IMG/VR virus record: IMGVR_UViG_3300045988_157201
Strand: one strand, 5' to 3'
DNA from: a virus
Length of the DNA: 64,000 bases
Part shown: positions 65 to 62,415 of the stretch, piece by piece
How positions within the stretch are numbered: position 1 is the stretch's first letter
Layout: every line of letters begins with the position of its first letter
Position numbers and translations under genes: made by a program
The notes under the pieces: generated by a model
Databases searched by the model: none
Seen by the model: the letters and a program-made list of their open reading frames with translations, nothing else
What the model was told of the DNA's origin: nothing

Positions 65-274
65 TGGAAAATACATTACAGAGAAATAATTGATAACACT
101 GAGAAATCAGAACAAGAAGGACTTATTGAAGATTTGGTTCAAATAATAACTGTATTTAGTTGCAAACTACAAGGGAAACGTGCGAACAAAGCAAGAAAAC
201 TTGTAAAGGAATTAATTGATGAAGGTGGTGAAGATAATGATAAAAACAATTCGAGTGATGTTGCTCCCAAATAA
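65..274 (+). pseudogene. tnpA: 3'-terminal remnant of IS607-type serine-recombinase transposase TnpA
   Basis: The frame reads ...EIIDNTEKSEQEGLIEDLVQIITVFSCKLQGKRANKARKLV..., resembling the C-terminus of IS607 TnpA (recalled pattern EELVEDL..I...F..RLYG.R). An in-frame TAA lies at 62-64, and bases 1-64 have stops in all three + frames. Confidence 0.35.
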
Positions 275-1412: not shown

Positions 1413-1640
1413 CACCTTTAAGTTAATACAGATATGTACTGATTCGTTAGTCAGGAATTTACGCCTATGGAGTGTACAAGAACTTGTTAGTAGATATTGT
1501 AAAAATACAAATTGAAAGCATACACAGCGAAGTAGGAATGAAACATAAAAGTTTATAACTTTTTATAAGTTTTCAGTAACGGTAAACCGTTGAGTTTCGG
1601 AACCCATTTAAAAACGGGATAATATTAGCAATGAAAGGTG
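1300..1640 (+). ncRNA. predicted TnpB omega/reRNA scaffold region (boundaries unknown)
   Basis: Established TnpB biology: the guide RNA derives from the tnpB 3' end plus the element's right end. No ORF occupies 1413-1630. Only short local hairpins are visible, e.g. AACGGTAAACCGTT around 1578-1591. Confidence 0.25.
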
Positions 1641-1688
1641 GTGAGATAAATTTCAGAGAATTTAAATAATAAAACAGTTGAAGAAATA

Positions 1689-1928
1689 ATGGAGTCACTT
1701 CCAGAAAAGATAAGAGAAACTGTAAAGAATGTGTATGATGCAGCTTACAGAAAAGGTTTAGCAGTTGGTGCATATTCTATTTCAACTATCGTTCTTCAAA
1801 AATTGAGAGAAAATAAAAATCCTGCTTTGGCAAAAGCTAATGCTATTAAATTTCTTATGAATAATAAGAATATAGCAAATTATGAGCAAAACAATAAAGA
1901 AAACAAAATTGAGACAGAGAAAGGATAA
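1689..1928 (+). CDS. hypothetical early protein
   Basis: 79-aa ORF, the first in the co-oriented early array. No recognisable motif and a weak RBS. Confidence 0.45.
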   Translation: MESLPEKIRETVKNVYDAAYRKGLAVGAYSISTIVLQKLRENKNPALAKANAIKFLMNNKNIANYEQNNKENKIETEKG

Positions 1929-5070: not shown

Positions 5071-5125
5071 AAAAATAACAAGATAGATTATACAAAATAA
5101 GAATAAAGACAGGCGGTGCTATTTT

Positions 5126-6670
5126 ATTACAGAGGACAAAGAAATAAAATTAAATAATATACAAAATGAGATATTATTCGTTGGGGCAATTTACAAACAA
5201 CCTGCATTGCTTGTTGAGTATTCAACGCAAATCAGGAGTAAATATGATTTTTCCGATGAAGTAACAAGATTTTTTTATGACAACGCAGAAGTTGTTTACA
5301 AAAACAGAAGCCAAATGTTTGATAACGCAATTATTACTACATATATGACTGAAGATAACGAGCGTTATAAAAAATATATTAATTATGGTGGTTGGGCTAC
5401 AATTCAAAAATGGATAGATTTAGCCTTGCCTGAAAATGCCAAATCCTATGCAGAGGTTATAAAGAAGTATTCATTGTTAAGAGAATATGACAGAAAAGGT
5501 TTTGATGTAAGTAAGATTGTTTCTCATCCTAAGTTTGAATCTTGGAGTTCAAGTGATATACCAAGACTTGTAAGGTCAAAAATAGATAGGGTTTCTACTG
5601 TCATTTTAGGTAATGCCGAAACAGAAATATTAAATTCTAATATTAAAGAAATGATACTAAAAAGACTTGAAATACCAGATATGGGTGTATCAGTTCCTTA
5701 TCCTTTGTGGAATAAAATGTTTAGAGGGTTAAAGACTGAATCACTGATGTGTGTTGGTATGAGGTCAAATGACGGTAAATCAAGATTTATGTTTAAGTTA
5801 ATTGCTTATTTGGCGTTATATCAGAAACAACAAGTTTGTGTATTACTCAATGAAATGTCTATTGAGAATATGAAATTTTGTTTGTTGACAACAGTAATTA
5901 ACAATAAAGAATTTGAAGAATTACACGGAATACATATTACCAAAAAGGAACGAGAAATCACTCTTGGCTTATATAAAGACGGTAAAGGTGAATTTGTTAT
6001 CAGAAAGCAAAATGCTGACGGTGAATTTATTGAAAGCTATGAAGATTATTACACAAGAGTAACAAATCAATCAACAGAATTTGAGAATATTCTTAAAGTG
6101 GCTGATTGGATTGAAAAGGAAAGCAAAGGTTTGATTTTTGCTGTTGATATGGTATCAGCTTACGATAACCAAACACTTGAACTTGAAATTCGTAAACAAA
6201 ATATGATTACTCAAACAAAATACTTCTTTTATGATACATTAAAAGATACTGACAGTACAGTAGGGGATTGGACAGGACTAAAAATCACTACGACTATGCT
6301 GTCAGAATTAACAAGGCAGCTTGATATTTTTATTTACTGTTCGATACAGCTTACTGATGATACCAACTTTGTAAAACCAGAGGAACTATGTTCTTCAAAT
6401 ATTGCAAATTGTAAACAATTAAAGCATATATTAGACTCATTGGTTTTATTTAAATCGGTAGATTTAAAAGATTATAATAAATATAAGTATCTTGTCTATG
6501 ATTCGGAATGGGGAGATTTTGGAGAGAAAGAGCTTGATACTTCTAAAAAATATTATATTGGTGTGACCGATAAAAACAGAGTTGGTAATAAATATAAAAT
6601 GGTATATCAAGTTGACCTTGATACCAACGAATGGTATGAAATGGGGCAATTAGTAATAACAGGAAGATAG
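5126..6670 (+). CDS. DnaB-like replicative helicase
   Basis: RecA-fold core LMCVGMRSNDGKSRFMFKLIAYLAL...LLNEMSIENM. The DnaB-like N-terminal text NEILFVGAIYKQPALL lies upstream of the first canonical start (TTG 5207). Candidate ATT start at 5126 is 7 nt after AGGCGGTG. The frame opens at 5087. Confidence 0.75.
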   Translation: MTEDKEIKLNNIQNEILFVGAIYKQPALLVEYSTQIRSKYDFSDEVTRFFYDNAEVVYKNRSQMFDNAIITTYMTEDNERYKKYINYGGWATIQKWIDLALPENAKSYAEVIKKYSLLREYDRKGFDVSKIVSHPKFESWSSSDIPRLVRSKIDRVSTVILGNAETEILNSNIKEMILKRLEIPDMGVSVPYPLWNKMFRGLKTESLMCVGMRSNDGKSRFMFKLIAYLALYQKQQVCVLLNEMSIENMKFCLLTTVINNKEFEELHGIHITKKEREITLGLYKDGKGEFVIRKQNADGEFIESYEDYYTRVTNQSTEFENILKVADWIEKESKGLIFAVDMVSAYDNQTLELEIRKQNMITQTKYFFYDTLKDTDSTVGDWTGLKITTTMLSELTRQLDIFIYCSIQLTDDTNFVKPEELCSSNIANCKQLKHILDSLVLFKSVDLKDYNKYKYLVYDSEWGDFGEKELDTSKKYYIGVTDKNRVGNKYKMVYQVDLDTNEWYEMGQLVITGR

Positions 6671-6684
6671 TAGGTGAATAATAA

Positions 6685-7707
6685 GTGGAAGTTCAAAGGC
6701 TAAAAGAATATATAATAAATAATGATTTAATATATAAAGTTTTAGAAAAAATTGGTTGTCATAGCATTAAAAATAAAGGGGAATATTATCAATGTGCTAA
6801 TCCGGACGGAGACAACCAAACAGCTATTACTGTATATAAAGATAGTCTAAATGTTATTGATTACACAAGAAATATTGAACAGAATAATACTTCTGATATT
6901 TTTAGTTTAGTTATGTTTTTTCAGAAATGTAATTTTTTTCAATCTATGCAATTTGTATGTTCTTGTGTTGGAATAGATTATTACTATGATTTTGATAAAG
7001 AACTTCCTGAAAGTTTAAAAATTACTAAGCTGTTATTTGAATTAAGTAATTGTTCTATACAAAGCGAAGAGGAAAATCCTGTAAAGCCTATAAGTGAAAA
7101 AATTTTATCTTATTATTTTCCTTATGTCAATGATATGTTTTGCGAAGATAATATTGATTATGAAACGCAACAATTATTTGAAGTCGGGTTTGATTGTGAA
7201 ACAAATAGAATAACTATTCCAATCCGTGATGAAATAGGTACTTTGGTAGGAGTTAAGGGGAGATACTTCTACCGAGAAGTTCCTGATGAAGTAAACAAGT
7301 ATTTATACATTGAACCTTGCTCGAAAGGTCAAATATTATATGGTCTTAATGTTACATATGACTATATAAAAGAAGAAAACACAGTTTATGTAGTAGAGTC
7401 TGAAAAAAGTGTTATGCAAATGTTTTCAAATGGTTATAGAAATGTTGTAGCTACTTCTGGCAAAAAAATAACTAAAACTCAAATACATAAATTATCAAGA
7501 TTATGTGGTAATATAGTGTTTCTATTTGATAAAGATGTGGGTATTTCTGAATTACAAGGGATAGCAGATAAGTTTATTAATGGAATAAACCTTTATGCAG
7601 TTATTGATGAGGGCGGTGTTTTAGGGGAGAAAGAATCACCCTCTGATAACTACATAAAATTAAAACAGTTATTAAATGATAAGAAAAACATAATAAATTT
7701 GAGGTGA
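6685..7707 (+). CDS. DNA primase (TOPRIM domain)
   Basis: TOPRIM Glu (VYVVESEKSVMQ) and DxD (FLFDKD). N-terminal Cys/His cluster. GTG start after AGGTGA. Confidence 0.7.
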   Translation: MEVQRLKEYIINNDLIYKVLEKIGCHSIKNKGEYYQCANPDGDNQTAITVYKDSLNVIDYTRNIEQNNTSDIFSLVMFFQKCNFFQSMQFVCSCVGIDYYYDFDKELPESLKITKLLFELSNCSIQSEEENPVKPISEKILSYYFPYVNDMFCEDNIDYETQQLFEVGFDCETNRITIPIRDEIGTLVGVKGRYFYREVPDEVNKYLYIEPCSKGQILYGLNVTYDYIKEENTVYVVESEKSVMQMFSNGYRNVVATSGKKITKTQIHKLSRLCGNIVFLFDKDVGISELQGIADKFINGINLYAVIDEGGVLGEKESPSDNYIKLKQLLNDKKNIINLR

Positions 7708-7713
7708 TAAAAA

Positions 7714-9447
7714 ATAAGTAACAAATTAAAATATAAATTAATTGAGAATAGTAAAAATGATTTGAATAATATAATTGATACAGTTCTAAAAAATAGAGGT
7801 ATTGATAATATTAATGAATATCTTTCTTTGACAGATAAAGTTTTATATTCTTATAAATTATTTAAGAATATAGACAAGGCTGTTCAATGTTTTAATAAAC
7901 ATACTGATAATAACAGTAATATCCATATTGTTGTTGATTCTGATGTTGATGGTTATACTTCGGGTGCTATTATGTATTCTTATATTAATGACTTGTTTCC
8001 AAATTGCAGATTGTCTTATTCTCTACATACAAAGAAACAACACGGTTTAACTAATGATATAGAAATACCAAAAGATATTGAATTATTAATTATTCCTGAT
8101 GCAAGCAGTAATGATATTGAAGAATGTAAAAAGCTGAAAGAAAACAATTCAAATCTTGATATTATAATTTTAGACCATCATATTATTGAGCAGGATAATC
8201 CTTATGCTATTGTTGTTAATAGCAATGACGGTGTTTATCCTAACAAAGAATTATCTGGTGTCGGAGTAGTATATAAATTTTTACAGGCTCTTGATGATGT
8301 AAACCTTGAGGATAAAGCTAATAACTATCTTGACTTAGTAGCTTTGGGCAACATTGCAGATATGATGGACATAAGAGTGTATGAAACTAAAAGGCTGATA
8401 GATAAAGGATTGATTCATAAAAACATAAAAAATAAAGTTTTTCGTACATTTATTGAGCGACAACGAGACACTATTCATAATAATGTGTCAATTCATAACA
8501 TTCAGTTTTATATTGTTCCGTTAATTAATGCAATGATTAGAATGGGCAGACAAGAAGAAAAGGAATTAATGTTCAAATCTTTTATAGAGCAAGATGAATA
8601 CTTCGATTACAAAAAGCGTGGTTCAAATGAAATTGTAAAAGAGGATATTTATACAAGAGTGGCTCGTTTTTGTAGTAATACTAAGACAAGACAACAAACA
8701 GCAGTTACCAAAGCTATGTGTGAGATTGAGCCGTTAATTGATAAAAATACAGATAAGGTTTTGTTTATTAATGTAAGTAAAATTCTTGCTGATACCTTGA
8801 CAGGTGTGTTAGCTACTAAGATTGCTGAAAAATATCAAAAACCAACTCTTTGTCTTAGAAAAACTAAAACGAAAGGTTTATATGGCGGTTCAGGTAGAAA
8901 TTATAAAAATAGTTCTATCAATAGTCTAAAGGATGTTTTAACTGATACAAGCTGCTTTGAAATGATACAAGGTCACGGCAATGCTTTCGGTTTAGAAATT
9001 GTTTCAAACAACATTAAAAATGCAATAAGCACTTTAAATAATCTTAATATTGACAGCGGTAACACTTGTAAGTTTTGTGACTTTATTATTCAGTCAGATG
9101 ACTTAACCATTGAAACAATGAAAAGGTTGTCTGATGTAAGCAATTATTGCGGTCAAAATATAGACGAACCTTTGATTGCTATTGAAAATATCGAATTAAG
9201 TAGAGAACAGCTTAAAATAATGGGGAAACTTGGTAATAGTTGGAAGTTTGAAACTGACAGTGGTGTTAATATTGTGAAATTTAATGTTGATTTAAAAACT
9301 GATGAAGTTCTTAACTCATTTGATGATTTTAGTGACTATGAAACCTTGCTTATAAACGCTGTTGGCAAGGCTAATATCAATTATTACCAAGGCATAGCTA
9401 CCTGCCAATTTATTATTGACGATTATGAGGTGGTGAATAAGTGGTAA
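7714..9447 (+). CDS. RecJ-like DHH-family ssDNA exonuclease
   Basis: DHH motifs HIVVDSDVDGYTSG, IILDHH and GNIADMMD. SD GAGGTGA 7701-7707 then ATA 7714 in frame. The first canonical start, TTG 7762, has no SD. Confidence 0.7.
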   Translation: MSNKLKYKLIENSKNDLNNIIDTVLKNRGIDNINEYLSLTDKVLYSYKLFKNIDKAVQCFNKHTDNNSNIHIVVDSDVDGYTSGAIMYSYINDLFPNCRLSYSLHTKKQHGLTNDIEIPKDIELLIIPDASSNDIEECKKLKENNSNLDIIILDHHIIEQDNPYAIVVNSNDGVYPNKELSGVGVVYKFLQALDDVNLEDKANNYLDLVALGNIADMMDIRVYETKRLIDKGLIHKNIKNKVFRTFIERQRDTIHNNVSIHNIQFYIVPLINAMIRMGRQEEKELMFKSFIEQDEYFDYKKRGSNEIVKEDIYTRVARFCSNTKTRQQTAVTKAMCEIEPLIDKNTDKVLFINVSKILADTLTGVLATKIAEKYQKPTLCLRKTKTKGLYGGSGRNYKNSSINSLKDVLTDTSCFEMIQGHGNAFGLEIVSNNIKNAISTLNNLNIDSGNTCKFCDFIIQSDDLTIETMKRLSDVSNYCGQNIDEPLIAIENIELSREQLKIMGKLGNSWKFETDSGVNIVKFNVDLKTDEVLNSFDDFSDYETLLINAVGKANINYYQGIATCQFIIDDYEVVNKW

Positions 9448-12400
9448 AAGAACAAATTGTACATTTACATAACCACTCGTATTATTCGTTGCTTGATGGA
9501 TATAGTTCGCCTATTGAATATTTACAGAGAGCAAAAGAATTAGGGTGTTCAGCTTTTGCTATTACTGAACATGGCAATGAATATAGTTGGGTATATTTTG
9601 ATAAGTTAAAAGAAAAATATCCAGATATAAAAATGATATTTGGTGTTGAGTTCTATGAAGCATTTGATATGAGTGTAAGCGACACTGAAAATAAATATTT
9701 TCATTTACTTGCTTTGGCTAAAAACGAAAAAGGCAGAATAGCTATTAATGAGTTGATTACAAAAGGTGAGTTTGAGGGATTTTATTATCACGGTAGAGTT
9801 GATTTAAATGCTATGAAATCTTATGGTAAAGACCTCATTATCAGTTCTGCTTGTCTTGCTTCTAAGTTGGCAAGAGAAGCAGATTTTAATAAGTGCATAG
9901 AATATGTTAATGAATATAAATCTGTATTTCCACATTTTTATCTTGAAATGCAATCACACGATACAATAGAACAGCGTGAGTATAATAAAAAGATAATTGA
10001 ACTTGCTAAGGCTACAAATACTGAATTTATTGTTACTTGTGATTCTCACGCTTCAACTAAGGAGGATTTGTATTATCAAGAGTATCTTGTAAAGATTGCT
10101 CACGACAAAGATACTCTTGGTGAAACATATAAAGATTGCTATATGCAATCTCCTGAAGAAATCCATAATATTATGGATAAACAGATTGGCAGAGAAAATG
10201 TAAGTCTTGCAATGGCTAATACCGTTAAGATAGCTAATATGATTGACGAAGTGCATATGCCGTTTCAAAAGCCACAGTTGCCGACATTCCCTATTCCAAA
10301 GGGATATAAAGATAATTATGAATACTTAGTTAAATTATGTGAAGATGGTTTTAAACAGCGTGGGCTTGATAAGTTATCTGCTGACGAACAAAAAATTTAT
10401 AGAGACCGGTTAGAATATGAGTTATCTGTAATTCATCAAATGGGATTCGACGGATATTTTCTCATTGTATGGGATTTGATTAACTTTGCTAAAAGTAATG
10501 ATATAGCAGTCGGTGACGGTAGAGGATGCTTCGTTAAAGGTTCAAAAGTATTGTTGGACAATGGCTATGTAAAAAACATTGAAGATGTCAAAATAGATGA
10601 TAAAGTAATAACTCATTTGGGTAATGTTAAGCCTGTTCAAAATGTCTTTGAGTATGATTGTGATGAATTAATGTATGAATTGAAATCGTCAGATACAAAC
10701 CCGATTCGTTGTACAAACAATCACGAAATTTTAGCAGTAAAATCTGTAGAATGTATAAAATACAAGAAAGCAAAACGAAAAGATAAGACAAGGAGATATT
10801 GCTCTAAAGATTGTACAAAATATCTGACTTGTAAGTTTAAACAAGAGAATTGGGCACCAAGTTGGATTCAAGCCAAAGATTTAGCAGTAGGTGACTTTAT
10901 TTGTTACCCAAAAAAGCGAGTCAATAATTCTAACTCAAATAGTATGCAGACTATTGATATAGTTAATTTTGTAAAAAATGTTGATTATAATAACGATTAT
11001 GTTTGGTGTAAACATAATGGAAGCAGGTCTATGATTAAACGATTTATTCCTTTAAACGAATCGTTCTTTTTTTTGGCAGGACTGTATATTTCACAAGGTT
11101 GGGTGCATTTCAAAAATGGAAATGTAATAGGCATTGGAATATCTCATCATTCTTGTAAAAAAGATTTGATAAATAAAACTGCGAATCTTTTACAAGAGTT
11201 TTTTGGCAGAAAGGCTTGTTTAAGGTTTGATGAAAAGAAAAAAGCAGTGCAAATTAATATTAATTCAGTTATTGTAGGCGAATTAATGTTGTCTTTGTTT
11301 GGGAAAGGGGCTTCTAACAAACATATTCCAAATTTTCTTTTTGATTTGCAAAAAATGTATAGAAGAGCTTTGATTTACGGATTGTGGTCTGGTGATGGGT
11401 GTTTTAAAATTGGAAACAGCAAAAAAACAAAATATTCAACTATTAATTATAATCTTGCGAAGCAACTGCAACTATTATTAGCCCTTGAGAATATAAAATC
11501 CAATATAAACATTAGACACCATAAGTCGAATGCTAATTGGAGTGACGAGGTTAGTGTTCAAGTGCTTGATAGAGAAAGTCTTTCAATATTAGACAATATT
11601 TGCAAGGGAAGTTTTAATTTAGGTTATAAAAAATACTCAAAAAAAGGGTATTGTTTGAGCTATCAGGATGGACAGTATGTATATCATAGAATAAGGGAAA
11701 TTAACACTTTTTGCTACAAAGGAAAAGTATATGATTTGAGCGTGAAAGATGATACATCTTATGTTGTGGAAAGTGTTGCAGTTCATAATTCTGGTGCTGG
11801 CTCAATAGTTAATTGGCTATTACATATTTCTACATTAAATCCTATAAAGCATAATCTTATTTTTGAAAGATTTTTAAACCCAGAAAGAGTGTCAATGCCC
11901 GACATTGACACAGACTTTAATAAGAGAGATGAAGTAATTAGGTACTTAATGGACAAATATGGTAAGGATAATGTTTGTCAGATTATCAATTTTAATTTTA
12001 TTACGCCTTGCGTAGCAATCAAAGATGTTGGTAAAGTATTAGGTGTTCCATATAAAGTAACAGATAAGATAAGTAAAAAGTTTGTTTATGAGAACTTTCA
12101 AGAAAACTTGGATAACGATAAGACAATTATTGAAGAATATGCTCAATATACGGATTTATTTGACATAGCAAGTCATTTGAGTGGTAGAGTGAAAACAGTA
12201 TCAATGCACGCAGGCGGTGTGGGTATTGTAGACACTAAGATTACTGATTATATGGCTATGCGTTGCGGTAAAGATAATGCAAGAGTTATTAGTGTTGATA
12301 AAAGGGTAATTGAAGAAATTGGTATTATTAAATTTGACTTGCTTGGTGTTGCAACACTTTCAGTTGTTGACGATAGTGTAAAACAATCTCATCTGAATTT

Positions 12401-12779
12401 AGATTATTTCAACGCAAGTAATGAAGATTTTATTAATGACAAAGCCACATATGAATTATTAGCAAGTGGTAGGACTGATGGTGTATTTCAGGTTGAAAGT
12501 CAAGGTATGAAAGATATATTAGTCAAATTAAAACCGACTAATATTGATGATATTTCTGCCGTATTAGCATTATATCGACCTGATAGTATGGGTGCGTTGA
12601 ACGATTATATTCAATGTAAATGTGGAGAAAAACAAGCAGAGTATATTCACGAAGATATGAAACCAATTCTCGAAAGCACATATGGCTGTATGATTTATCA
12701 AGAACAAATGCTTGATATTGTTCGTAAATTTGGTGGAAGAAGTTACGGTCAGGCAGACCTTTTCAGAAAAGCAGTAGGT
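9441..12779 (+). CDS. dnaE: DNA polymerase III alpha (DnaE-type), exon 1, including an in-frame intein
   Basis: PHP motif VHLHNHSYYSLLDG. GDGRG | intein | SGAGSIVNWLL. The sequence ...ADLFRKAVG ends the exon at U12779, after which the ORF runs into intron sequence and stops at 12800. Confidence 0.85.
10527..11789 (+). mobile_element. intein (421 aa) with LAGLIDADG homing-endonuclease domain inside DnaE
   Basis: Cys1 (CFVKGSKVLLDNG), block B TNNH, dodecapeptides FLAGLYISQGW and LIYGLWSGDGC, C-terminal VAVHN followed by Ser+1. Confidence 0.85.
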
Positions 12780-18331: not shown

Positions 18332-18368
18332 GACAAATTGAATATGTTTAATAAGGAAGGGTGGTTTT

Positions 18369-19049
18369 ATCGGGTATAAATTAACAGTTGCAGTATTATC
18401 TTTATTGATTGTTTTAAGTGGGTGTGGAAGATATATTAATTCAGTTAAAACTCCACCGAAAGCTAATAAGATAAATTTTGTTAGTACATATGATACTGTT
18501 CAAAGAAAATCAGTCGAAGAAACAACTATAGAAAAAACTACAATTTCTACAGCCGAAACTACTATAAGCAAAGTTGAAACTAAACCTACTGAAACTATTG
18601 TAGTTGCAGAGAGGAAAGAAGAAATTGAAAGTTGTTCTGAAATTGAAAAATATATTGAAGCAGAAACAGAGTCGACAGAGGAAAGTGCAGAGGAAAGTAA
18701 AAATATTGTTACGGATAATAATTCTGATACAAATATTGATTTGCTTGCAAGGATAATTTATTTTGAGGCAGGTAGCTGTTCTGAATATTGTCAGTGGCTT
18801 GTTGGCAGTACTGCAATGAATTTAGCAAATGAATATGGTAGTTTGGAAACCGTTGCTTTTAATTATGATATATTCAATGTAGCTAATATTCTATATACAG
18901 ATACTCCAAGTAGTTTATCTTATTCAGTTGCTATAAGAATAATTAATGGAGATAGAGATGTAAATGTAAGAGCCTTTAGAACAGACTATTATCATTCATT
19001 TGGTAGTCCTTATACAAATGTTGACAATGTTTATTTTAGTTCATTTTAA
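18369..19049 (+). CDS. secreted lipoprotein with SleB-type cell-wall hydrolase domain
   Basis: LLARIIYFEAGSCSEYCQWLVGSTAMN matches the remembered Hydrolase_2/SleB pattern. The lipobox signal KLTVAVLSLLIVLSGC exists only if translation starts upstream of TTG 18405. Candidate ATC start at 18369 follows GGAAGGGTGG. Confidence 0.65.
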   Translation: MGYKLTVAVLSLLIVLSGCGRYINSVKTPPKANKINFVSTYDTVQRKSVEETTIEKTTISTAETTISKVETKPTETIVVAERKEEIESCSEIEKYIEAETESTEESAEESKNIVTDNNSDTNIDLLARIIYFEAGSCSEYCQWLVGSTAMNLANEYGSLETVAFNYDIFNVANILYTDTPSSLSYSVAIRIINGDRDVNVRAFRTDYYHSFGSPYTNVDNVYFSSF

Positions 19050-19942: not shown

Positions 19943-20611
19943 TTGAAAGTAATTAAACGAGATGGCAGAGAAGTTGATTTTGATAAGAATAAAATTATTA
20001 AAGCTATTAGCAAGGCGAATGACGAAAGTAAAACTAATAATGAAAAGACTTTAAGTAAATCTGAAATACTTAATATTGCAAATGAAATAGAAAGAAAAAT
20101 CAATCACAGCCAAAGGGCATATTCTGTTGAGGAAATCCAAGATTTAAACGAGGAATTTATTGATAATCTTGGTTGTTTTAAACTCGCTAAAAGATATGCC
20201 ATATATCGTTATAAAAGAGGCTTGGTTAGAAAAGGCAATTCAACGGACGATGCAATTTTATCATTACTTGACTTGAATAATGAAGAAATTAAACAGGAAA
20301 ATTCAAATAAAAATCCTACTATTATTCCTACGCAACGAGATTATATGGCTGGCGAAGTTAGTAAGGATTTAACTGATAGAATTTTGTTACCGCAAGATAT
20401 TGTAGAAGCAGATAAAGAGGGTATTATTCACTTCCACGACAAAGATTATTATGCTCAACATACATATAATTGCTGTTTATGCAATCTTGATGATATGTTA
20501 CAGAATGGAACTGTAATTAGCGGAACTATGATTGAAAAACCACACAGCTTTTCAACAGCTTGTACTATTGCAACTCAGATAATCTCACAAGTGAGTTCCA
20601 ACCAATATGGT
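19943..20611 (+). CDS. nrdD: anaerobic ribonucleoside-triphosphate reductase NrdD, exon 1 (ATP-cone + N-terminal core)
   Basis: ATP-cone MKVIKRDGREVDFDKNKIIKAI. The exon ends ...SQVSSNQYG at U20611. P1 pairing: exon ATATGGT 20605-20611 with intron GCCATAT 20618-20624. Confidence 0.85.
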
Positions 20612-23263: not shown

Positions 23264-24166
23264 AAAGAATATATTGCCGCAGTAAAATGATTGAAATTCA
23301 GGGGAAGTCTAAACTATTAAATAGCAAGATAATCCTGAGCCAAGATTCTTAACTAATTTGAATTTCTATATTAACAAAAGTATTAAAAATAAAAAAGGGG
23401 AATTGAAGATATTAGAACATAAATGTGAAGTTTGTGGTCGAATGTGGCGAAAAAAATTAAAAGCAGACGGCAAAATTGTTTGTAATAAGCATTACCATCA
23501 ATTTAAAAGGTTTGGTTGTTTTAGGGATGCTTCAAGTAGAACACAGAGAGATAAAAATAATATAACCATAAACGGTGATATTGCTTTAATTGATTTGTAT
23601 GACAAACAATACAATGTTATTGCACAAGCAATAATTGATACTGAAGATATTAATAAAGTAAAATACATCAAATGGAGATTGAATTGCAATGGATATGTAA
23701 TGAATAATAGCCATACAAGCATTTTTTTACATAGAAGAATACTTGGCGTTGATACAATGGTAGACCATAAAAATGGTAATAGATTAGATAATAGGAAATG
23801 TAATTTAAGGGTAGCTACGCCAAGCACAAATCAAATGAATGTAAATTATCTTGGGGTGTATCGACACAAAGACAAATATATTGCCAAGATAAAATTACAC
23901 CAACATCAGACTCATTTAGGAGTTTTTGCATATGAAGAAGAAGCTAAATATGCACGATGGTATGCCGAACAGGTGTTGTTCAAAGAATTTGCATATCCAA
24001 AACCAGAACCAAAGATAATTGAAAGCAGAAAAAATGAAATTCAGAAATTAGTTAATAATAAGGTGCAGAGGCTACAATAATCACTATAGCCAAACCATTT
24101 GAATGGATGGTATAGAATGTATAGTCCACTCCCTATTTAAATATCTCGAAAGAGAGGGTATAAAGG
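23264..24166 (+). mobile_element. group I intron 2 in nrdD
   Basis: P1/IGS with a U-G wobble. Ends in G24166. Carries an HNH-AP2 ORF. GAAA-capped hairpin TCTCGAAAGAGA near 24144-24155. Confidence 0.8.
23358..24080 (+). CDS. intron-encoded HNH endonuclease with AP2 DNA-binding domain
   Basis: VDHKNGNRLDNRKCNLRVATPSTNQMN (HNH) and YLGVYRHKDKYIAKIKLHQHQTHLGVFAYEEEA (AP2). The start is uncertain: TTG 23358 has no SD, while in-frame ATA 23409 is 8 nt after AAAGGGG. Confidence 0.8.
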   Translation: MNFYINKSIKNKKGELKILEHKCEVCGRMWRKKLKADGKIVCNKHYHQFKRFGCFRDASSRTQRDKNNITINGDIALIDLYDKQYNVIAQAIIDTEDINKVKYIKWRLNCNGYVMNNSHTSIFLHRRILGVDTMVDHKNGNRLDNRKCNLRVATPSTNQMNVNYLGVYRHKDKYIAKIKLHQHQTHLGVFAYEEEAKYARWYAEQVLFKEFAYPKPEPKIIESRKNEIQKLVNNKVQRLQ

Positions 24167-24253: not shown

Positions 24254-24763
24254 ATGAATTATATCAAAATAACAAAAAATGATATAGCCAATGGAGTTGG
24301 TGTTAGAACGGTATTATGGGTAAGTGGTTGCACTATGCGTTGTAAGGAATGTCATAATCAATCAACTTGGGATTTTAATGCAGGTCAGCCATTTACAAAT
24401 GATACGATGAATAAGTTGTTAAATTCACTAATCCCCGATTATGTTGCCGGTTTAACATTATCAGGTGGGCACCCATTGGAAAAACAAAACCAACAGCAGA
24501 TAGCCAATATAGTAAAAACGGTTAAAGCTAAATATTTAACTAAAACTATTTGGTTATACACAGGTTATTTATATGAGAATATATTGAAAATGCCATTTGT
24601 GACAAGGAACATATTGCCTTATATAGATATTCTTGTTGACGGAAAATATGATTGCACCAAGCGAGACATCACACTTGCTTGGTGTGGTTCGTCAAACCAA
24701 AGAGTTATAGATATTCAGAAAAGTTTAAAAGAAAATAAAGTGATTTTATTTAAAGAGGAGTGA
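24254..24763 (+). CDS. nrdG: anaerobic RNR activating radical-SAM protein NrdG
   Basis: CTMRCKECHN (CxxxCxxC) and GLTLSGGHPLE. Immediately follows nrdD. Confidence 0.9.
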   Translation: MNYIKITKNDIANGVGVRTVLWVSGCTMRCKECHNQSTWDFNAGQPFTNDTMNKLLNSLIPDYVAGLTLSGGHPLEKQNQQQIANIVKTVKAKYLTKTIWLYTGYLYENILKMPFVTRNILPYIDILVDGKYDCTKRDITLAWCGSSNQRVIDIQKSLKENKVILFKEE

Positions 24764-25653
24764 AAAGTATAGAATTTTTAAAAAATCCTTTTAATTATAC
24801 GGGTGCAAAATATAAATTACTACCTCAATTATTACCATTATTCCCTGATAGAATTGATAATTTTGTGGATTTATTCGGAGGGGGGGGAGAAGTATCATTA
24901 AATGTAAAGGCTAATTCAATAGTTTACAATGACAAATGTAAGCCGTTAGTAAATATTTTTAAAAATTTAGATAACGATTTCGTTAATGAGGTTAAAGAAA
25001 TTATTAATAAATATAAACTTGATAAATGGAATAAAGACGGTTTCTTAAAACTTCGTTCTGTGTATAACAACTCGTTAAAAGATAATTTAAACAGAGAAAA
25101 TGCTGTTGCCTTGTATTGTTTACTCGTACACGCATTTAATTATCAGATAGCTTTTAATAGCAAAGGTGAATATAATATGCCCTCTGGTGCAAGCAGGTCA
25201 TATTTCTCTAAATCCTTGGAAACAAAATTAAATAAATACATAGATGAAATCGGTAAAAGAAATATCAAATTTTATAGTGAGGACTTTCATAATTTATCAT
25301 TTGATAATCAGGATTTTAAAAACACATTTTACTATTGCGACCCACCTTATTTGATTACAGTAGGAGCATATGAGAGAGATTATTTTTGTAAATGGTCTGA
25401 AAGTTATGAAAGAGAACTGCTAAATTTATTAGACATTCTTGATTATAAACAGGCTAAGTTTGCTTTATCAAATGTTTTAGAGCATAAAGGTAAAAGCAAT
25501 GATATTTTAAAAGAATGGTCTAAAAAATATAATGTTCATTATTTAAATATGAACTATAAGAATTGTAATTATCAAACAAAAGATAAATCGGCAAATAGCA
25601 GTATTGAAGTTTTAATTACGAATTATGAAACATACAAAGAAACAGATAATTAA
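24760..25653 (+). CDS. Dam-like (D12 class) N6-adenine DNA methyltransferase
   Basis: NPFNYTGAKYKLLPQL, motif I VDLFGGGG, motif IV YYCDPPY. GTG 24760 overlaps the nrdG stop (GTGA). An alternative in-frame ATA at 24769 is 8 nt after GAGGAG. Confidence 0.9.
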   Translation: MKSIEFLKNPFNYTGAKYKLLPQLLPLFPDRIDNFVDLFGGGGEVSLNVKANSIVYNDKCKPLVNIFKNLDNDFVNEVKEIINKYKLDKWNKDGFLKLRSVYNNSLKDNLNRENAVALYCLLVHAFNYQIAFNSKGEYNMPSGASRSYFSKSLETKLNKYIDEIGKRNIKFYSEDFHNLSFDNQDFKNTFYYCDPPYLITVGAYERDYFCKWSESYERELLNLLDILDYKQAKFALSNVLEHKGKSNDILKEWSKKYNVHYLNMNYKNCNYQTKDKSANSSIEVLITNYETYKETDN

Positions 25654-26161: not shown

Positions 26162-26189
26162 TTAAATAATTCTTTTATTAGTAAAGGCG

Positions 26190-26921
26190 GTGAAACTAAT
26201 TATTAAATTATTACAAGGCGATTGTCTTGAATTGATGAAAGATATTCCCGATAAGTCGATAGATATGATTTTATGTGATTTACCTTATGGAACAACACAA
26301 TGCAAATGGGATACTGTCATTCCATTTGAACCATTGTGGAAAGAATATAAAAGAATCATAAAGGATAATGGGTGTATAGCGTTGTTTAGCAGTCAACCAT
26401 TTACAAGTTCATTAGTAATGAGCAATCCTAAAATGTATAAATATGAATGGATATGGCAGAAAACCCATCCAAAAGGACATTTAAACGCTAAGAAGATGCC
26501 AATGAGAGCACACGAAAATATTGAAATTTTTTATAAAAAACCACCATTGTATAATCCACAAATGACTCATGGACATACAAGAAAGGTTGTTAAAACAAAT
26601 TACATAAAGGAATCAGACGGTAATAGCTGTTACGGAAGAGAAATAAGAAATACATTTTATGACAGCACAGATAGATTTCCGTTAGATGTACAAATATTTA
26701 GCAATGATAATCAGTGCAACAAACTTCACCCAACGCAGAAGCCTGTAGCATTATGTGAATATTTAATTAGAACATACACCAACGAGGGTGATACAGTTCT
26801 TGATAATTGTATGGGTTCAGGAACAACAGGTGTAGCTTGCAAAAATCTTAATAGAAATTTCATTGGTATAGAAATTGATGAAAACTATTTTAATATAGCG
26901 AAAGAAAGAATTGGTAAATAG
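26190..26921 (+). CDS. beta-class N4-cytosine/N6-adenine DNA methyltransferase
   Basis: LLQGDCLELM, motif IV CDLPYG preceding HPTQKP and motif I LDNCMGSGTTGVA (N6_N4_Mtase order). GTG 26190 abuts the SD; in-frame ATT 26199 is at 8 nt. Confidence 0.9.
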   Translation: MKLIIKLLQGDCLELMKDIPDKSIDMILCDLPYGTTQCKWDTVIPFEPLWKEYKRIIKDNGCIALFSSQPFTSSLVMSNPKMYKYEWIWQKTHPKGHLNAKKMPMRAHENIEIFYKKPPLYNPQMTHGHTRKVVKTNYIKESDGNSCYGREIRNTFYDSTDRFPLDVQIFSNDNQCNKLHPTQKPVALCEYLIRTYTNEGDTVLDNCMGSGTTGVACKNLNRNFIGIEIDENYFNIAKERIGK

Positions 26922-26942
26922 CATTATAAACCATAGATTGGA

Positions 26943-27221
26943 GTGGTAACTATAAAAAGAATAATTAAGAAAAGTATGGCACAAGATACTGTGAATCTAA
27001 AATTCTTTAAGTGTAATGCTTGTAAATGTATTTTTGAAACAACTATAGATGATTGTGATTGGGTTTGCCCAATTAATTCTGCAACTACAGTTTTTATATC
27101 ACTTTGCCCGTCTTGTGGGAAAGTATGTTATAAAGAAGAAATAAAGGAACAAACAATAAGAGAAAAAGAACTTGAAATAAACGAACTCAAGAAAAGAAAT
27201 GAAGAAAAGGAAACAATTTGA
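26943..27221 (+). CDS. hypothetical zinc-ribbon protein
   Basis: CNACKC...CPSCGKVC followed by a charged coiled C-terminus. The start is ambiguous: GTG 26943 inside the SD, ATA 26952, or ATG 26976. Confidence 0.5.
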   Translation: MVTIKRIIKKSMAQDTVNLKFFKCNACKCIFETTIDDCDWVCPINSATTVFISLCPSCGKVCYKEEIKEQTIREKELEINELKKRNEEKETI

Positions 27222-28720: not shown

Positions 28721-28759
28721 AAAAATAATACAATGAAATGTAACAAAGGAGAATGATAA

Positions 28760-29869
28760 ATAATTAATAAAAAACTAAAAGTTCTAAGCCTGTTTGACGG
28801 AATTAGTTGTGGAATGATAGCTTTACGAAAGGCTAATATTCCTGTTGAAAGTTATGATGCTTATGAAATTGATAAATATGCCATTAAAGTATCAGAACAT
28901 AATTTTCCAGAAATAAAGCAACACGGTGATGTGTTTAATGCTGATTTTAGTCAATACAATGGCATAGATATTCTTATGGGGGGGTCGCCTTGCACTTATT
29001 GGTCGATTGCTCAAAGAAAGAATAGAGAAACAGAATCAAGTGGTCTTGGCTGGAACTTGTTTCAGCAATACATAAAAGCACTTAAAGAAACTAAGCCAAA
29101 ATATTTTATATATGAGAATAATTATTCAATGAGTAAATCCATAAGAGATAGTATAGATAAATCTTTTGGAATTGAGAGTATAATGATTAACTCAGCTTTA
29201 GTATCAGCACAACAGCGTAAACGCTTATATTGGGGTGGCAAAAGGAATGATGATGGTAGCTATAGTAGGGTAGACATTAAACAACCTATTGATAAAGGCT
29301 TAGTTGTGAATGACATTCTCGACAGTGGAACATCTTGGACTGATAAAAGCTATTGCTTAACAGCGAGCTATAATGGTGCTGTAGCTTGGAATACGATTGA
29401 AAGAAAACAAAGAACTATGATAGCTGAATCTGTTAATTTTGATATTTCAACACCTACAAAAGTTGGAGCAATGCCAAGACCTAATGGGGAATTAAGTAAA
29501 AGTCAAGGTTTGAGATTATACTCGACTGATACAAAAGGTGTCTGTTTAATGAGCAATGGCGGTGGATTAGGTGCCAAAACAGGGTTATACGCAATACCTC
29601 AATTTGAAAATAATCTTAAAAAAGATACTATTTATGAAGTAATAAACAAGACAATTAACATTAAAGGTAAAAATTATCCGATAAACTTAAAAGACGGATA
29701 TTATACAATAAGGAAATTAAGTGTGAGTGAAGCAAAAAGGTTACAAACTATACCTGAATGGTTTGATATGAGTGTGATTAGTAATAATCAAGCATATAAA
29801 TGTTTAGGCAATGGTTGGACTGTTGATGTTATTGCTCATATATTGGAAAATATTAAGGAAAATTTATGA
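28760..29869 (+). CDS. DNA (cytosine-5) methyltransferase
   Basis: Motif I KVLSLFDGISCG, motif IV GGSPCTYWS, ENN, QRKRLYW and GNGWTVDV. Motif I lies upstream of the first ATG (28814). The frame opens at 28760 (ATA, 8 nt after GGAG), with ATT at 28763. Confidence 0.9.
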   Translation: MINKKLKVLSLFDGISCGMIALRKANIPVESYDAYEIDKYAIKVSEHNFPEIKQHGDVFNADFSQYNGIDILMGGSPCTYWSIAQRKNRETESSGLGWNLFQQYIKALKETKPKYFIYENNYSMSKSIRDSIDKSFGIESIMINSALVSAQQRKRLYWGGKRNDDGSYSRVDIKQPIDKGLVVNDILDSGTSWTDKSYCLTASYNGAVAWNTIERKQRTMIAESVNFDISTPTKVGAMPRPNGELSKSQGLRLYSTDTKGVCLMSNGGGLGAKTGLYAIPQFENNLKKDTIYEVINKTINIKGKNYPINLKDGYYTIRKLSVSEAKRLQTIPEWFDMSVISNNQAYKCLGNGWTVDVIAHILENIKENL

Positions 29870-31369: not shown

Positions 31370-31399
31370 TAACATAAAGAAGTTAAAGGGGTTGATAAT

Positions 31400-32020
31400 A
31401 TAGCAAAAGATTGGACAGGCAATTACAAGAGCGTTTATACAACATTAGGAGCAAGCAATCACACTGATAAAGAACGAGAAGAAAATGATTATTACGCTAC
31501 CGAACCAAGAGCGACAGAATTATTACTTGAAGTTGAAAAGTTTTCCCCTGATATTTAGGAATGTGCTTGTGGAAGTGGAGAAATTTCCAAAGTTCTTGAA
31601 GATAATGGTTATAATGTAAAATCAACTGATATTGTTTATAGAGGTTTTGGAGAAGAACAGTCGATTGACTTTCTTAATTCAAAAGAAAATACACATGAAA
31701 ATACATATGATGGTGATATTATCACCAATCCTCCATTTAAGTACGCACTTGAATTTTGTCAGAAAGCATTAAGTATTATATCTAACGGACATAAAGTGGC
31801 AATGTTCTTAAAATTGCAGTTCTTAGAAGGTAAGAAAAGAAAATCATTCTTCTTGGACAATCCGCCTAAAACTATTTATGTTTCAAGTTCAAGATTGTTG
31901 TGTGCTAAGAACGCTGACTTTCAACGAATGAGAGATGGTGGCGGTAGTGCAGTAGCTTACGCTTGGTATGTGTGGGAAAAGGGATATAAAGGTAATACAG
32001 TTATAAAGTGGATAAATTAA
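31400..32020 (+). pseudogene. decayed gamma-class N6-adenine DNA methyltransferase (in-frame TAG, ATA at start position)
   Basis: Continuous frame (M/I)AKDWTGNYKS...YYATEP...SPDI-TAG-ECACGSGEIS...ITNPPFKYALEF...AWYVWEKGY. TAG at 31556-31558 sits where a Trp (TGG) is expected. ATA 31400 is 8 nt after AAAGGGG. Confidence 0.7.
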
Positions 32021-56034: not shown

Positions 56035-56832
56035 TCACGCCCAATCATCCAATAATTCTTTGTTTTGTTGTGAGATATTAGGATTTTTATATTTATCTCT
56101 TAAAACATCTGTTTCTACCTTATTAGCAATGCCATTTTCAATATCATCATTGATATACTCCGTCTGACATTCTACAAGTGTCCAAGTGTTTACACCCTTA
56201 TCATTGAAATTTTTTGTTGTATCATCAGTTTGTGTTATTTTATACGCAGTAGGGTGTTCTTTATTTTTATCCATTAAAATCCTTGTATCACGCTCTACTT
56301 TGTTGGTTTCATCATTGCTTTGAATATATATCATATATTGAGCTGTACCAACCACTGTCTTATTAGCTTCTTTTACACCACTATTGTATTGAGTGGCATT
56401 AGTTGAATACACAGGATATTCAAGAACAGTATAATCAGTTTCAGGGTTAATGATAAATTTTAACGACCAATTACAATAATACATAACTGCTTTTTCATAA
56501 AATTTATTGTCATCAACCAATCCTACAACAATCCAATAATTGTCTTTGTATTTTATGTAGTCACCACTTGTCAATGTGCCAACAGGGCACAGAACTTGTC
56601 TTTTCTTTGAACTTTCATCATTATCTGATGTTACTTGCTGAACAATTCCCTTAAAAGGAATACCGTTTTCCTGTTTTAAATCAGGTTTGCAAGGGTAATA
56701 AAACATATTATTACCCAATGGACTGTTAAGCATATCATCTATGTATGGAGATTTAAAAAAATCAAAGTCTGTATTCTCATTACCCCCCGTATAAGAGGGT
56801 GGAGAGGAGAATTGAGTCCATTCTTTAGCCAT
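56035..56832 (-). CDS. hypothetical neck-region protein
   Basis: ATG 56832 is 5 nt after GGTGGTGA. 265 aa. Confidence 0.45.
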   Translation of the reverse strand: MAKEWTQFSSPPSYTGGNENTDFDFFKSPYIDDMLNSPLGNNMFYYPCKPDLKQENGIPFKGIVQQVTSDNDESSKKRQVLCPVGTLTSGDYIKYKDNYWIVVGLVDDNKFYEKAVMYYCNWSLKFIINPETDYTVLEYPVYSTNATQYNSGVKEANKTVVGTAQYMIYIQSNDETNKVERDTRILMDKNKEHPTAYKITQTDDTTKNFNDKGVNTWTLVECQTEYINDDIENGIANKVETDVLRDKYKNPNISQQNKELLDDWA

Positions 56833-57226
56833 TGTCATCACCACCATAAGCCGGCTGTTTTGCTTGGTCTAATTTTAACTCTACTTTTGCTCTTGCATAT
56901 TTAAGTTCTTCAAATGTCATTTTCTTAGCTGTGCCTGTATCGTTTAATGATAAATCCTTACCGATAATATTTATTTTCTTGTTTTGTCTATCAAATTCTC
57001 TTTCAAGATAATAAACTTTCATAATATCAGCAATTATTCCCATAGTTTTAAGAGAAACTTTTTTATTAAAATTTCCTGAATCAGAATCATAGTCTAAGTC
57101 ACTAACTTCTCTTTCATATTCTGCTATAGCCAATTCAGCCCATAATTTAGTTAATCCCTCTGGCAATAATGATATTTCTACATATTTCGTCTCAAAAATA
57201 TTAATAATTTGTTCTAATGATGTTAT
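56825..57226 (-). CDS. head-tail connector (gp6-like), putative
   Basis: ...LTKLWAELAIAEYERE... in the adaptor position. The frame is open from 57232. GGCGGTGA (57238-57231) then in-frame ATA 57226. The first canonical start, TTG 57166, has no SD. Confidence 0.45.
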   Translation of the reverse strand: MTSLEQIINIFETKYVEISLLPEGLTKLWAELAIAEYEREVSDLDYDSDSGNFNKKVSLKTMGIIADIMKVYYLEREFDRQNKKINIIGKDLSLNDTGTAKKMTFEELKYARAKVELKLDQAKQPAYGGDDNG

Positions 57227-57240
57227 AACATCACCGCCAA

Positions 57241-60733: not shown

Positions 60734-62398
60734 TTAGCCATTTGGAGAGGGTGAATTATTTGCATTATTATTTTTTGATGTTATAGTATTTTCATTTTCC
60801 AAATTCTCAACACTCGGTCTACCAATGTCATTTTTACCTGAATTTGTGTACATAGATTGATGAGGTGGGAACAATTCATCAAAGTTTTGTTCTCGCTCAT
60901 ATTTCATAATATCTATATAAACATCAGGCTCAATACCTACCGAAGCAATTAATGGGGTCATTGCACCACCACAATCAGCATAGAGAGATTTGCATTTATT
61001 GAAACACTTATCTCTATTGAATGGTGTGATTGGTAATACATACATACTAACGCAATTTTCAATATCTTTAATTACATTAAAATTGATACACTTATTTAAT
61101 TCTTCAATATAATCTTCAATAATAGAATATACATCACTTGCTACCAACTCAAGATTTAACAAAGCCGTTGCGTAGTTAGAGCCACTTGATTTTGAACCAC
61201 CATATAATGCTGACGGAGAAAAGCCAAAAGATTCAGCAACATCATCTTTTATTGACTTCTCATTCTTTTCGTCAAATAAACTTGTGTCAATAGTCAGTTT
61301 ATTTATTTGAGTACCTGCCGCCAATGACAAGACAGAAGCTCTCTGCGTATTAGGTTTCTGACTAACGGCACCTTTTAAGGCTTCGTGCTGTTTAATTTGC
61401 TGTTCCTCTGTTAATACGCTTTTTCCTGTACCGTCATTACGCATAGGGAATACTTGATATATCAAATTATTATTAATATTTGAGAGAACACCTCTCTTTG
61501 TATCAATAAAATAATTAGCATATAAAATTTCATCTAACGAGGTTAAAGCTAAAGGAACGCCCCATTTATCTCTTAAAGTATTGTTAATAGCCGTATATAT
61601 TGTTTTACGCCAATCTAATACAACCCAATTTCTGCCATTATTACCTGTTTTATCCCAAATATTATAAGCTCTTGAAATTTCTTTTGGCATTGTAAGTAAT
61701 TGCCTTTTAATTTCATTCTCGGAATAGCAGTCTTTGAAATATTCTAAATTAAAAGCTATGACAGGTACACCATTATATCGTGAAACTAATTGACAATACT
61801 CATTAGGCAAAGAATATATATTTACATCATATTCAGTGTTATTTTTACTGTTAATTTCACCAATTAGTTGAACATCAACATCACTCATATACTTATTCAC
61901 ACCTAATGCTTTTCTTGGAGTTGCCTCAAAATAATAATAACTTGTACCACCAATACATACTTTCTTTGTGTTATCCCTAATTTGTTTCTTATATCTTATT
62001 TGCTTTAAAACAGCATTGTATTTTTCCTTGTTTTTAAGAAAACTCTTTGTGTTACTTTTACCCTTTGGAGAGTGTAATACATAACTCAAATAGTGCATTG
62101 AAGCCATTTTGTTAATGCCAGATTTAATTGCACCATTAGTGTTATACGCCCATACACCTAATTTATAAGCACTCATTGGATATTGTTGTGGCGAAGAGAC
62201 AATTGTTTCTACTTGCTTTAAGGAATATCCCAAAGCCGAAGCTAAAGAATTTCTACAATCTTGGCTACCGCAAAAACCAACAAAACTATAAAATCCGTCA
62301 ATAAATTCAGCCGAATTTAATTCAGTATTATTGTTCTGCGTTTCAACAGAAGTGTTAATTTCGTTGTTTCGTTTGAACAATTTATCAAAAATTCCTAT
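60734..62398 (-). CDS. portal protein
   Basis: About 550 aa, directly downstream of terL. GGTGGTGAG (62410-62402) then in-frame ATA 62398. TTG 62380 lies 25 nt from the SD. Confidence 0.65.
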   Translation of the reverse strand: MGIFDKLFKRNNEINTSVETQNNNTELNSAEFIDGFYSFVGFCGSQDCRNSLASALGYSLKQVETIVSSPQQYPMSAYKLGVWAYNTNGAIKSGINKMASMHYLSYVLHSPKGKSNTKSFLKNKEKYNAVLKQIRYKKQIRDNTKKVCIGGTSYYYFEATPRKALGVNKYMSDVDVQLIGEINSKNNTEYDVNIYSLPNEYCQLVSRYNGVPVIAFNLEYFKDCYSENEIKRQLLTMPKEISRAYNIWDKTGNNGRNWVVLDWRKTIYTAINNTLRDKWGVPLALTSLDEILYANYFIDTKRGVLSNINNNLIYQVFPMRNDGTGKSVLTEEQQIKQHEALKGAVSQKPNTQRASVLSLAAGTQINKLTIDTSLFDEKNEKSIKDDVAESFGFSPSALYGGSKSSGSNYATALLNLELVASDVYSIIEDYIEELNKCINFNVIKDIENCVSMYVLPITPFNRDKCFNKCKSLYADCGGAMTPLIASVGIEPDVYIDIMKYEREQNFDELFPPHQSMYTNSGKNDIGRPSVENLENENTITSKNNNANNSPSPNG

Positions 62399-62415
62399 AA
62401 TCTCACCACCATTCT

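Follow-up and report, generated by a model that had tools for sequence, protein, structure and literature searches.

Near-cognate start codons in bacteria and phages

Initiation at AUA, AUU or AUC (collectively AUH) is familiar from a small number of bacterial genes. The infC gene, which encodes initiation factor 3 (IF3), has an autoregulated AUU or AUA start, and E. coli pcnB begins with AUU; at these codons the initiator tRNA decodes, IF3 discriminates and translation is limited. Such genes number one or two per host genome. We describe here a phage in which 9-13 of ~64 genes, virion genes included, quite probably start in this way, as judged from a 64,000-nt stretch of the IMG/VR record IMGVR_UViG_3300045988_157201, which we call the window. 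No feedback by IF3, as in the autoregulation of infC, is implied for this phage.

The closest parallel in a Firmicute is S. aureus, which has only four such starts genome-wide, all with extended Shine-Dalgarno (SD) sequences and with ~10-30% of AUG output in reporters; those of ccpN (AUA), cvfC1 (AUU) and citZ (AUA) were validated by Ribo-Ret and reporters (PMC13009471). These sites share with the phage genes a Firmicute context and the pairing of a non-canonical start with an extended SD at proper spacing. They differ in being four per bacterial genome and experimentally validated, whereas the phage starts amount to ~14% of genes and are known from sequence comparison. Among phages of Firmicute hosts, Streptococcus thermophilus phage TP-J34 has an AUU start in one of 60 genes, described as ‘very unusual’ and confirmed by resequencing (PMC3952083); this is a single case, not a lineage-wide one. 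Phage SPP1 has no such start among 80 genes.

The SPbeta phages (Spbetavirus) resemble the phage studied here in being large and temperate and in carrying their own PolIII alpha, DnaB, RecJ, methylases and an interrupted reductase gene. In contrast to the ~14% AUH starts of the window, the 43 annotated starts in the syntenic region of SPbetaL3 (35% GC content) are all canonical (35 ATG, 6 TTG and 2 GTG), and its portal gene begins with ATG. The literature that we searched holds no description of a phage lineage with ~14% AUH starts, an absence that is not proof. The mechanism is already known, from infC and ccpN; what is new is its frequency within one phage lineage.

Start-codon inventory

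An earlier note on this DNA, made from the letters alone, had proposed that a sizeable minority of early and late genes is initiated at AUA/AUU behind strong SDs. Every site that it quoted is present where it placed it, and the proposal appears sound in the light of orthologue starts and N-terminal protein elements. Near-cognate AUA/AUU/AUC initiation, argued from comparative evidence, is the best explanation of what follows, and we hold it with considerable confidence.

For the inventory, we took all long stop-to-stop frames on the coding strands and scored, in a fixed register, how well the sequence upstream of each pairs with the Firmicute anti-SD tail. The curated starts comprise 40 ATG, 8 TTG, 3 GTG, nine that are ATA, ATT or ATC only, and four that are ambiguous (12892, 23409, 24769 and 26952). 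The nine are ATT at 1650, 5126 and 26199, ATC at 18369, and ATA at 7714, 28760, 31400, 57226 and 62398; ATT 1650 is an addition to the cases listed in the earlier note. In each of these genes, ~14% of the total, the in-frame codon follows a strong SD and no usable ATG, GTG or TTG is at hand. In several, the frame is closed just 5′ of the start, with TAA abutting both ATA 28760 and ATT 1650.

Isoleucine codons are common in AT-rich DNA, and we therefore used an annotation-light test, in which, for each long frame, the best SD close to its 5′ end is located and the in-frame codon 7-9 nt past the GGAGG-equivalent core of that SD is read. Across 59 frames, this codon is ATG in 12, ATA in 9 and TTG in 5. 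The nine ATA compare with 1.4 expected (ATA makes up 2.35% of internal codons; p=1e-5). Where the best SD (score of at least 15) has no canonical codon nearby, ATA, ATT or ATC stands in 10 of 19 frames, with isoleucine at 8% of codons (p=5e-7). Like frames of a sister clade at 65% identity have ATA, ATT or ATC in 30 of 61; those of unrelated methylase-carrying phages have them in 9/66, near the 7% isoleucine background, and those of SPbetaL3 in 1/7. In the host flanks, all 11 scored frames have a canonical start. The AUH pattern exceeds chance.

Spacing and pairing strength add to this picture. The aligned spacing is 7-9 nt in 10 of 11 frames with only AUH after the best SD, a count that still includes ATA 21917, rejected below; ATG starts spread over 4-13 nt. 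With the standard Firmicute anti-SD assumed, the median SD duplex energy is -12.8 kcal/mol at the nine AUH sites versus -10.1 at canonical ones (Mann-Whitney p=0.0024). The plainest combinations of ATG and GGAGG belong to the head and tail module.

Relaxed initiation across the host was considered and rejected: 18/18 host genes in both flanks start with ATG behind ordinary SDs, a sample too small to exclude rare host cases. With the pattern lacking in the controls (host flanks, SPbetaL3 and unrelated phages), the trait is therefore not a property of the sampled flanks or of the wider phage family. On these comparisons, it is specific to this gut lineage.

Virion genes

The portal protein gene (60734..62410, minus strand), which matches PHROG portal family 2739, has the SD GGTGGTGA at 62410-62403 and its predicted start at ATA 62398-62396. 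Three lineages whose SDs differ retain this ATA: a clade at 99% identity; a clade at 65% protein identity with the SD aaaggagtgataaaaaATA, in which the window's downstream TTG 62380 is missing; and lineage L087-89, with the SD ggtggtgagaatATA. Synonymous differences start directly after the ATA.

A second gene of the head region encodes a ‘connector-like’ protein of 133 amino acids (56825..57238, minus strand; SD GGCGGTGAT at 57238-57230, ATA at 57226-57224). From this ATA, the predicted N-terminus reads M-TSLEQIINIFETK. Thirteen of 14 aligned public homologues are 130-136 amino acids long at 53-80% identity, the N-terminal 20 residues are conserved across homologues, and the closest of them (79-80% identity) have M exactly at the codon of ATA 57226. 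In lineage L087-89, SD and spacer are identical (ggcggtgatgtt) but the next codon is ATG in place of ATA, and a clade at 57% has GTG at the start codon. In the public database, the window-type protein is cut to 113 amino acids instead of 133. The earlier note had named this protein a connector and the lipoprotein described below SleB-like; no family support was found for either label.

Replication genes

The RecJ-like exonuclease gene (7701..9447, plus strand) has the SD GAGGTGA at 7701-7707. The last three letters of this SD (TGA 7705-7707) are the stop of the preceding primase-like gene; TAA 7708-7710 and AAA follow, and then ATA 7714-7716, which opens a frame of 577 codons ending with the stop at 9447. 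The first canonical codon, TTG 7762, has no SD. Counted from the ATA, residue 7 corresponds to position 3 of the PHROG RecJ model, and distant relatives have an ATG start within 4 codons of the ATA position. ATA is kept in 9/10 close relatives; one contig has GTA (L022:8274-8276), with the 577-codon open reading frame (ORF) otherwise intact.

The DnaB-like helicase gene (5111..6670, plus strand) has the SD AGGCGGTG at 5111-5118 and a predicted start at ATT 5126-5128, with the first canonical codon, TTG 5207, 27 codons further on. The earlier note had read helicase-like sequence before that TTG, and rightly so: the alignment to the PHROG DnaB model begins at residue 3, and the conserved NEILFVG motif sits 5′ of TTG 5207. 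Two distant relatives (L023, L024) have ATG 2-5 codons past the ATT position, well 5′ of the TTG. Initiation could instead occur at ATA 5144-5146; both candidates are non-canonical.

DNA methyltransferases

Three methylase genes of the plus strand belong to the set. First: the C5 cytosine DNA methyltransferase (28745..29869) has the SD AAAGGAG at 28745-28751 and ATA at 28760-28762. That its catalytic motif I precedes the first ATG, as had been noticed from the sequence, is borne out by the Pfam DNA_methylase model, of which position 1 falls on residue 6; ATG 28814 is residue 19, past motif I. Relatives have ATA or ATT at the start, and in more distant ones an ATG precedes VLSLFDG by two codons. 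The product in public gene calls is truncated, at 351 amino acids.

Second: the N6_N4 DNA methyltransferase (26183..26921) has the SD AAAGGCGGTGA at 26183-26193 and ATT at 26199-26201, with GTG 26190 falling within the SD; the Pfam N6_N4_Mtase model begins at residue 21. The site had been filed among the weaker cases but counts here among the nine; two relatives (L037, L042) have an ATG aligned to ATT 26199. A paralogous variant (L014, L025) has only ATA or ATT behind GAGGTGA.

Third: an interrupted DNA methyltransferase gene (31385..32020) has the SD AAAGGGG at 31385-31391, ATA at 31400-31402 and an in-frame TAG at 31556-31558. Among related loci, ATG occupies the start codon in one (L041), and four others have TTG one codon later (L026-34). 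At the site of the TAG, 14/17 related loci aligning there have TGG and 3/17 have TAG; ATA 31400 is therefore also the start of intact gene copies.

The TAG bears on an alternative that the earlier note had itself raised, namely that the non-canonical codons are ATG codons corrupted by systematic sequencing or assembly errors. ATA is one G-to-A step from ATG, and the TGG-to-TAG change at 31556 was taken as a hint of such errors. The change is a segregating nonsense allele, however, a real polymorphism and not an error. The non-canonical starts are found again in contigs of at least seven IMG/VR samples and in ENA, NCBI and Logan assemblies, built with different assemblers, as well as in diverged lineages; at 65% protein identity the portal ATA is still there, behind another SD, and ATT and ATC cannot be G-to-A products at all. 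Errors have next to no chance of being the explanation.

The methyltransferase region as a whole (window 24-32 kb; L055, L059-L068) is highly mosaic among otherwise near-identical prophages. Relatives differ in the number and fragments of their C5, N6_N4 and D12 methylase genes, and some carry PAPS-reductase-like, LemA or RNA-ligase genes, none of which is present in the window.

Lipoprotein, ORF 1650 and downstream starts

The lipoprotein gene (18355..19049, plus strand) has the SD GGAAGGGTGGT at 18355-18365 and ATC at 18369-18371. A signal peptide with a lipobox (LSGC) is present only with this start, as the earlier note had observed, and homologues at 46-49% identity carry both elements. 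The ATC is kept in 9 relatives within three different sequence contexts, and a variant (L090) reads ATC GTG. Public calls use the first canonical codon, TTG 18405, which yields ‘MIVLSGC’ and leaves no signal peptide.

An ORF of 92 amino acids and unknown function (1633..1928, plus strand) has the SD GAAAGGTGGTGA at 1633-1644 and ATT at 1650-1652. Its SD pairing is the strongest of the set at -17.1 kcal/mol, calculated with the assumed Firmicute anti-SD. The start is kept in 9 close relatives, and the next canonical codon, ATG 1689, lacks an SD. With no distant homologues, it is the weakest of the nine.

These N-termini bear on the choice between near-cognate initiation and another reading, in which the true starts are the first downstream canonical codons (TTG 7762, 5207, 18405, 62380 and 57166; ATG 28814) and the stretch upstream is untranslated. 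Public gene calls assume just this, and the GTA of L022 at the RecJ site would be harmless if it were so. The downstream starts would nevertheless remove methylase motif I, the lipoprotein signal peptide, the conserved 20-residue N-terminus of the 133-aa protein, and conserved N-terminal residues of DnaB and RecJ. These codons have no SD, and one of them, TTG 62380, is missing from the 65% portal clade. Moreover, the alignment with homologues that the earlier note had suggested places canonical starts of orthologues at the non-canonical position, on the same codon, for the connector-like gene, the methylase at 31400 and the N6_N4 methylase. We regard downstream initiation as very improbable.

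Ambiguous and rejected candidates

Three genes of the plus strand that had been put forward as weaker cases stay ambiguous. In the D12 adenine methyltransferase gene (24754..25653), the choice lies between ATA 24769 and GTG 24760 inside the SD. Relatives at 80% identity retain the ATA, and an in-frame GTG (in the window) or ATG (in relatives) stands 3 codons 5′ of it, against the SD. In an ORF of 92 amino acids (26937..27221), ATA 26952 competes with GTG 26943 inside the SD, and both codons are conserved in 13 loci. In an HNH endonuclease gene (23391..24080), the SD AAAGGGG lies at an aligned spacing of 7 nt from ATA 23409, and the competing TTG 23403 begins 2 nt past the G run.

A fourth weaker case, ATA 12892, was downgraded: the PHROG endonuclease model (4645) begins at residue 18, which is ATG 12940, the probable true start. 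ATA 21917 has the second-best SD score and was rejected, being internal to the second part of nrdD with conserved coding sequence upstream.

Proposed mechanism

The extended, strongly pairing SD would position the 30S subunit at optimal spacing, and the initiator fMet-tRNA would then pair with the first two bases of the codon, as at infC, pcnB, ccpN and cvfC1. With the initiator tRNA as the presumed decoder, by analogy with these genes, the proteins would begin with Met, not Ile. The third-position mismatch is disfavoured by IF3, so output would be only a fraction of the AUG level; by the same analogy, the yield at AUH starts is probably reduced. Such a device would be found on genes for proteins required at low copy number, and the products of the AUH genes include the portal, the small head-region protein, the helicase, RecJ, three methylases and the lipoprotein. 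We infer that the lower yield is useful for stoichiometry and not merely tolerated under AT-biased mutation pressure. No phage translation factor was found in the window or in the part of the relatives that lies outside it, where the search brought up instead a MazF/PemK toxin, a second recombinase and domains of unknown function.

That last distinction is the one on which a competing account turns. AUH initiation may be real and yet a tolerated by-product of AT-biased mutation, in which ATG decays wherever lower output is harmless. The phage has 31% GC content versus 41% in the host flanks. ATA, the transition product of ATG, makes up only 30% of isoleucine codons yet prevails among the starts, and the start codon flips between lineages: ATA, ATG and GTG in the connector-like gene, ATA, ATG and TTG in the methylase at 31400, ATT and ATG in the N6_N4 methylase. 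On the other hand, the stronger SDs and the tight 7-9 nt spacing suggest compensation under selection, the portal ATA is kept in three lineages, and SPbetaL3, likewise AT-rich relative to its host, has no annotated AUH starts. We consider a mere by-product possible but the less likely of the two accounts; adaptive tuning and AT-biased decay are not mutually exclusive.

Several observations weigh against useful near-cognate initiation as we propose it. Of the thirteen candidates, four are ambiguous, with an in-frame GTG or TTG within the SD or against it. The GTA variant of L022 does not readily fit an ATA start that is essential to RecJ. The anti-SD used throughout is an assumed one, the standard Firmicute sequence. 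ATA accounts for 5/9 of the starts, or 9/13 with the ambiguous ones, and differs from ATG by a single G-to-A transition, so that neutral decay under AT bias is as good a fit as selection. As to copy number, family support extends only to the portal, helicase, RecJ and methylases; PHROGs gave no functions for capsid and tail proteins, none of which could be named, and the low-copy argument is therefore qualitative only.

Translational coupling offers a different route to relaxed codon needs, in which ribosomes would re-initiate after terminating on the upstream gene. For RecJ, the portal, the connector-like gene and ORF 1650, the start follows an upstream stop by 0-20 nt, with the stop partly inside the SD, an arrangement that would suit re-initiation. 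For DnaB, the lipoprotein and the C5 methylase, however, the stop of the preceding gene is 38-56 nt away, and every AUH site has its own strong SD. Coupling is an unlikely explanation.

A phage tRNA considered as decoder

Neither the window nor most related loci contain tRNA genes. By walking ~36 kb beyond the window, tRNA-Ile(UAU) and tRNA-Gln(UUG) were found in some relatives, where they adjoin (L079:6255-6411; L076:9020-9362); tRNA-Gln(UUG) is present in 9/9 close relatives and tRNA-Ile(UAU) in 4/9. The two have similar acceptor stems, and both carry a G1.U72 wobble.

The isoleucine tRNA invites the idea that it initiates at AUA and that the phage proteins begin with Ile. Close relatives, including the nearest contig, encode it, with anticodon TAT, ~5 kb upstream of the window start, and its G1.U72 wobble is unusual. 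Its anticodon stem (A-U, C-G, C-G, G-C or G.U, A-U) nevertheless lacks the three G:C pairs of initiators, the gene is missing in 5/9 close relatives that keep their ATA starts, and such a tRNA cannot account for ATT or ATC. Being elongator-like and variably present, it is therefore rejected as the decoder, a role that we judge extremely unlikely. The best reading is that it helps to decode AUA codons during elongation.

Two further genes adjoin the tRNA genes, one for a MazF/PemK-like toxin (L074:11387-11812) and a second one of the tyrosine-recombinase family (L074:12944-13855).

Implications

Near-cognate starts are usually viewed as curiosities, known from a few genes in a bacterial genome and from isolated cases in phages. 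If about one in seven genes, an essential virion gene included, is opened in this way, a virus can use the choice of start codon routinely to set expression levels. Standard gene finders accept only ATG, GTG and TTG and so leave truncated proteins in public databases; similar lineages are probably hidden in metagenomic data. The natural ATG/ATA allelic pairs behind identical ribosome-binding sites could also be used to study start-codon strength in an anaerobic gut Firmicute.

A more speculative thought, and a doubtful one, is that the AUH starts form a coordinated, IF3-sensitive programme for replication, methylation and portal genes. The set would then be held low at high initiation fidelity, because IF3 rejects these codons, and would rise together when fidelity or the ratio of IF3 to ribosomes drops, as on prophage induction, under stress or during Ruminococcus sporulation. 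Start-codon identity would in that case be a lineage-specific regulatory layer of the phage life cycle. More remote is the notion that the variable tRNA-Ile(UAU) takes part in decoding AUA starts.

The phage and its host

A megablast search against isolated phages gave no match. Protein-level searches found only phages of the Bacillus SPbeta group, which are the nearest isolated relatives at 35% identity in the portal, and the Pfam families YonB, YonD_N, YomX_N and YomW of the SPbeta head module are present in relatives. Genes lie on the plus strand up to ~34.3 kb and at 36-38 kb; the minus strand carries the integrase (34.6-35.9 kb) and the genes from ~38.2 kb onward. The integrase (34651-35847, minus strand) matches the tyrosine integrase family. 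The phage is temperate, as public contigs include a phage form and integrated copies with host flanks. Judged by head-module homology, the replication gene set, the integrase and the integrated copies, it is an SPbeta-like temperate phage.

The attachment core of ~60-65 bp (window ~34382-34445) is identical to the 3′ end of a host gene of the GGGtGRT family. On one side of the integrated copies lie GGGtGRT, SpoVAD, RuvX and TrkAH; the opposite flank contains a formate/nitrite transporter, DnaX, YbaB, RecR and SmpB. The DnaX protein of the flank matches, at 100% identity, proteins named Ruminococcus sp. or unclassified Ruminococcus, and the host is accordingly a human-gut Ruminococcus, presumably one like R. 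bromii. The prophage is very common in human-gut assemblies; its integrase is indexed in 74 collection blocks and its dUTPase in 220.

Other features of the window

Two genes of the plus strand are interrupted or appear so. The anaerobic ribonucleotide reductase gene nrdD is split (window 19943-23290) into a first part at 19943-20638, which covers Pfam NRDD positions 1-110, and a second at 21797-23290, which covers positions 105-541, the two being separated by an HNH/NUMOD4 endonuclease gene (20730-21668). The gene for DNA polymerase III alpha seems to be split as well (window 9441-15233). A part of 1119 amino acids (9441-12800) is followed by the endonuclease gene of PHROG 4645 (~12892-13863) and by an ORF (14076-15233) that has no SD of its own and contains HHH_6 and OB-fold domains, as is typical of an alpha C-terminus. 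Rfam gave no significant intron match on either split gene.

Beyond the window, the nearest relative contig has a stretch of ~3.7 kb (L069:3031-6763) with no ORF of at least 90 amino acids on either strand, in surroundings that are otherwise densely coded. At the start of the window, a TnpB/IS605 OrfB-type gene (237-1409, plus strand) carries HTH_OrfB_IS605, OrfB_IS605 and Cas12f1-like TNB domains. A full-length RAGATH-18 RNA (1464-1538, plus strand; 65.5 bits, E=8.5e-11) lies ~55 nt past this gene and is presumably the guide-type RNA of the TnpB-type gene, carried by the phage.

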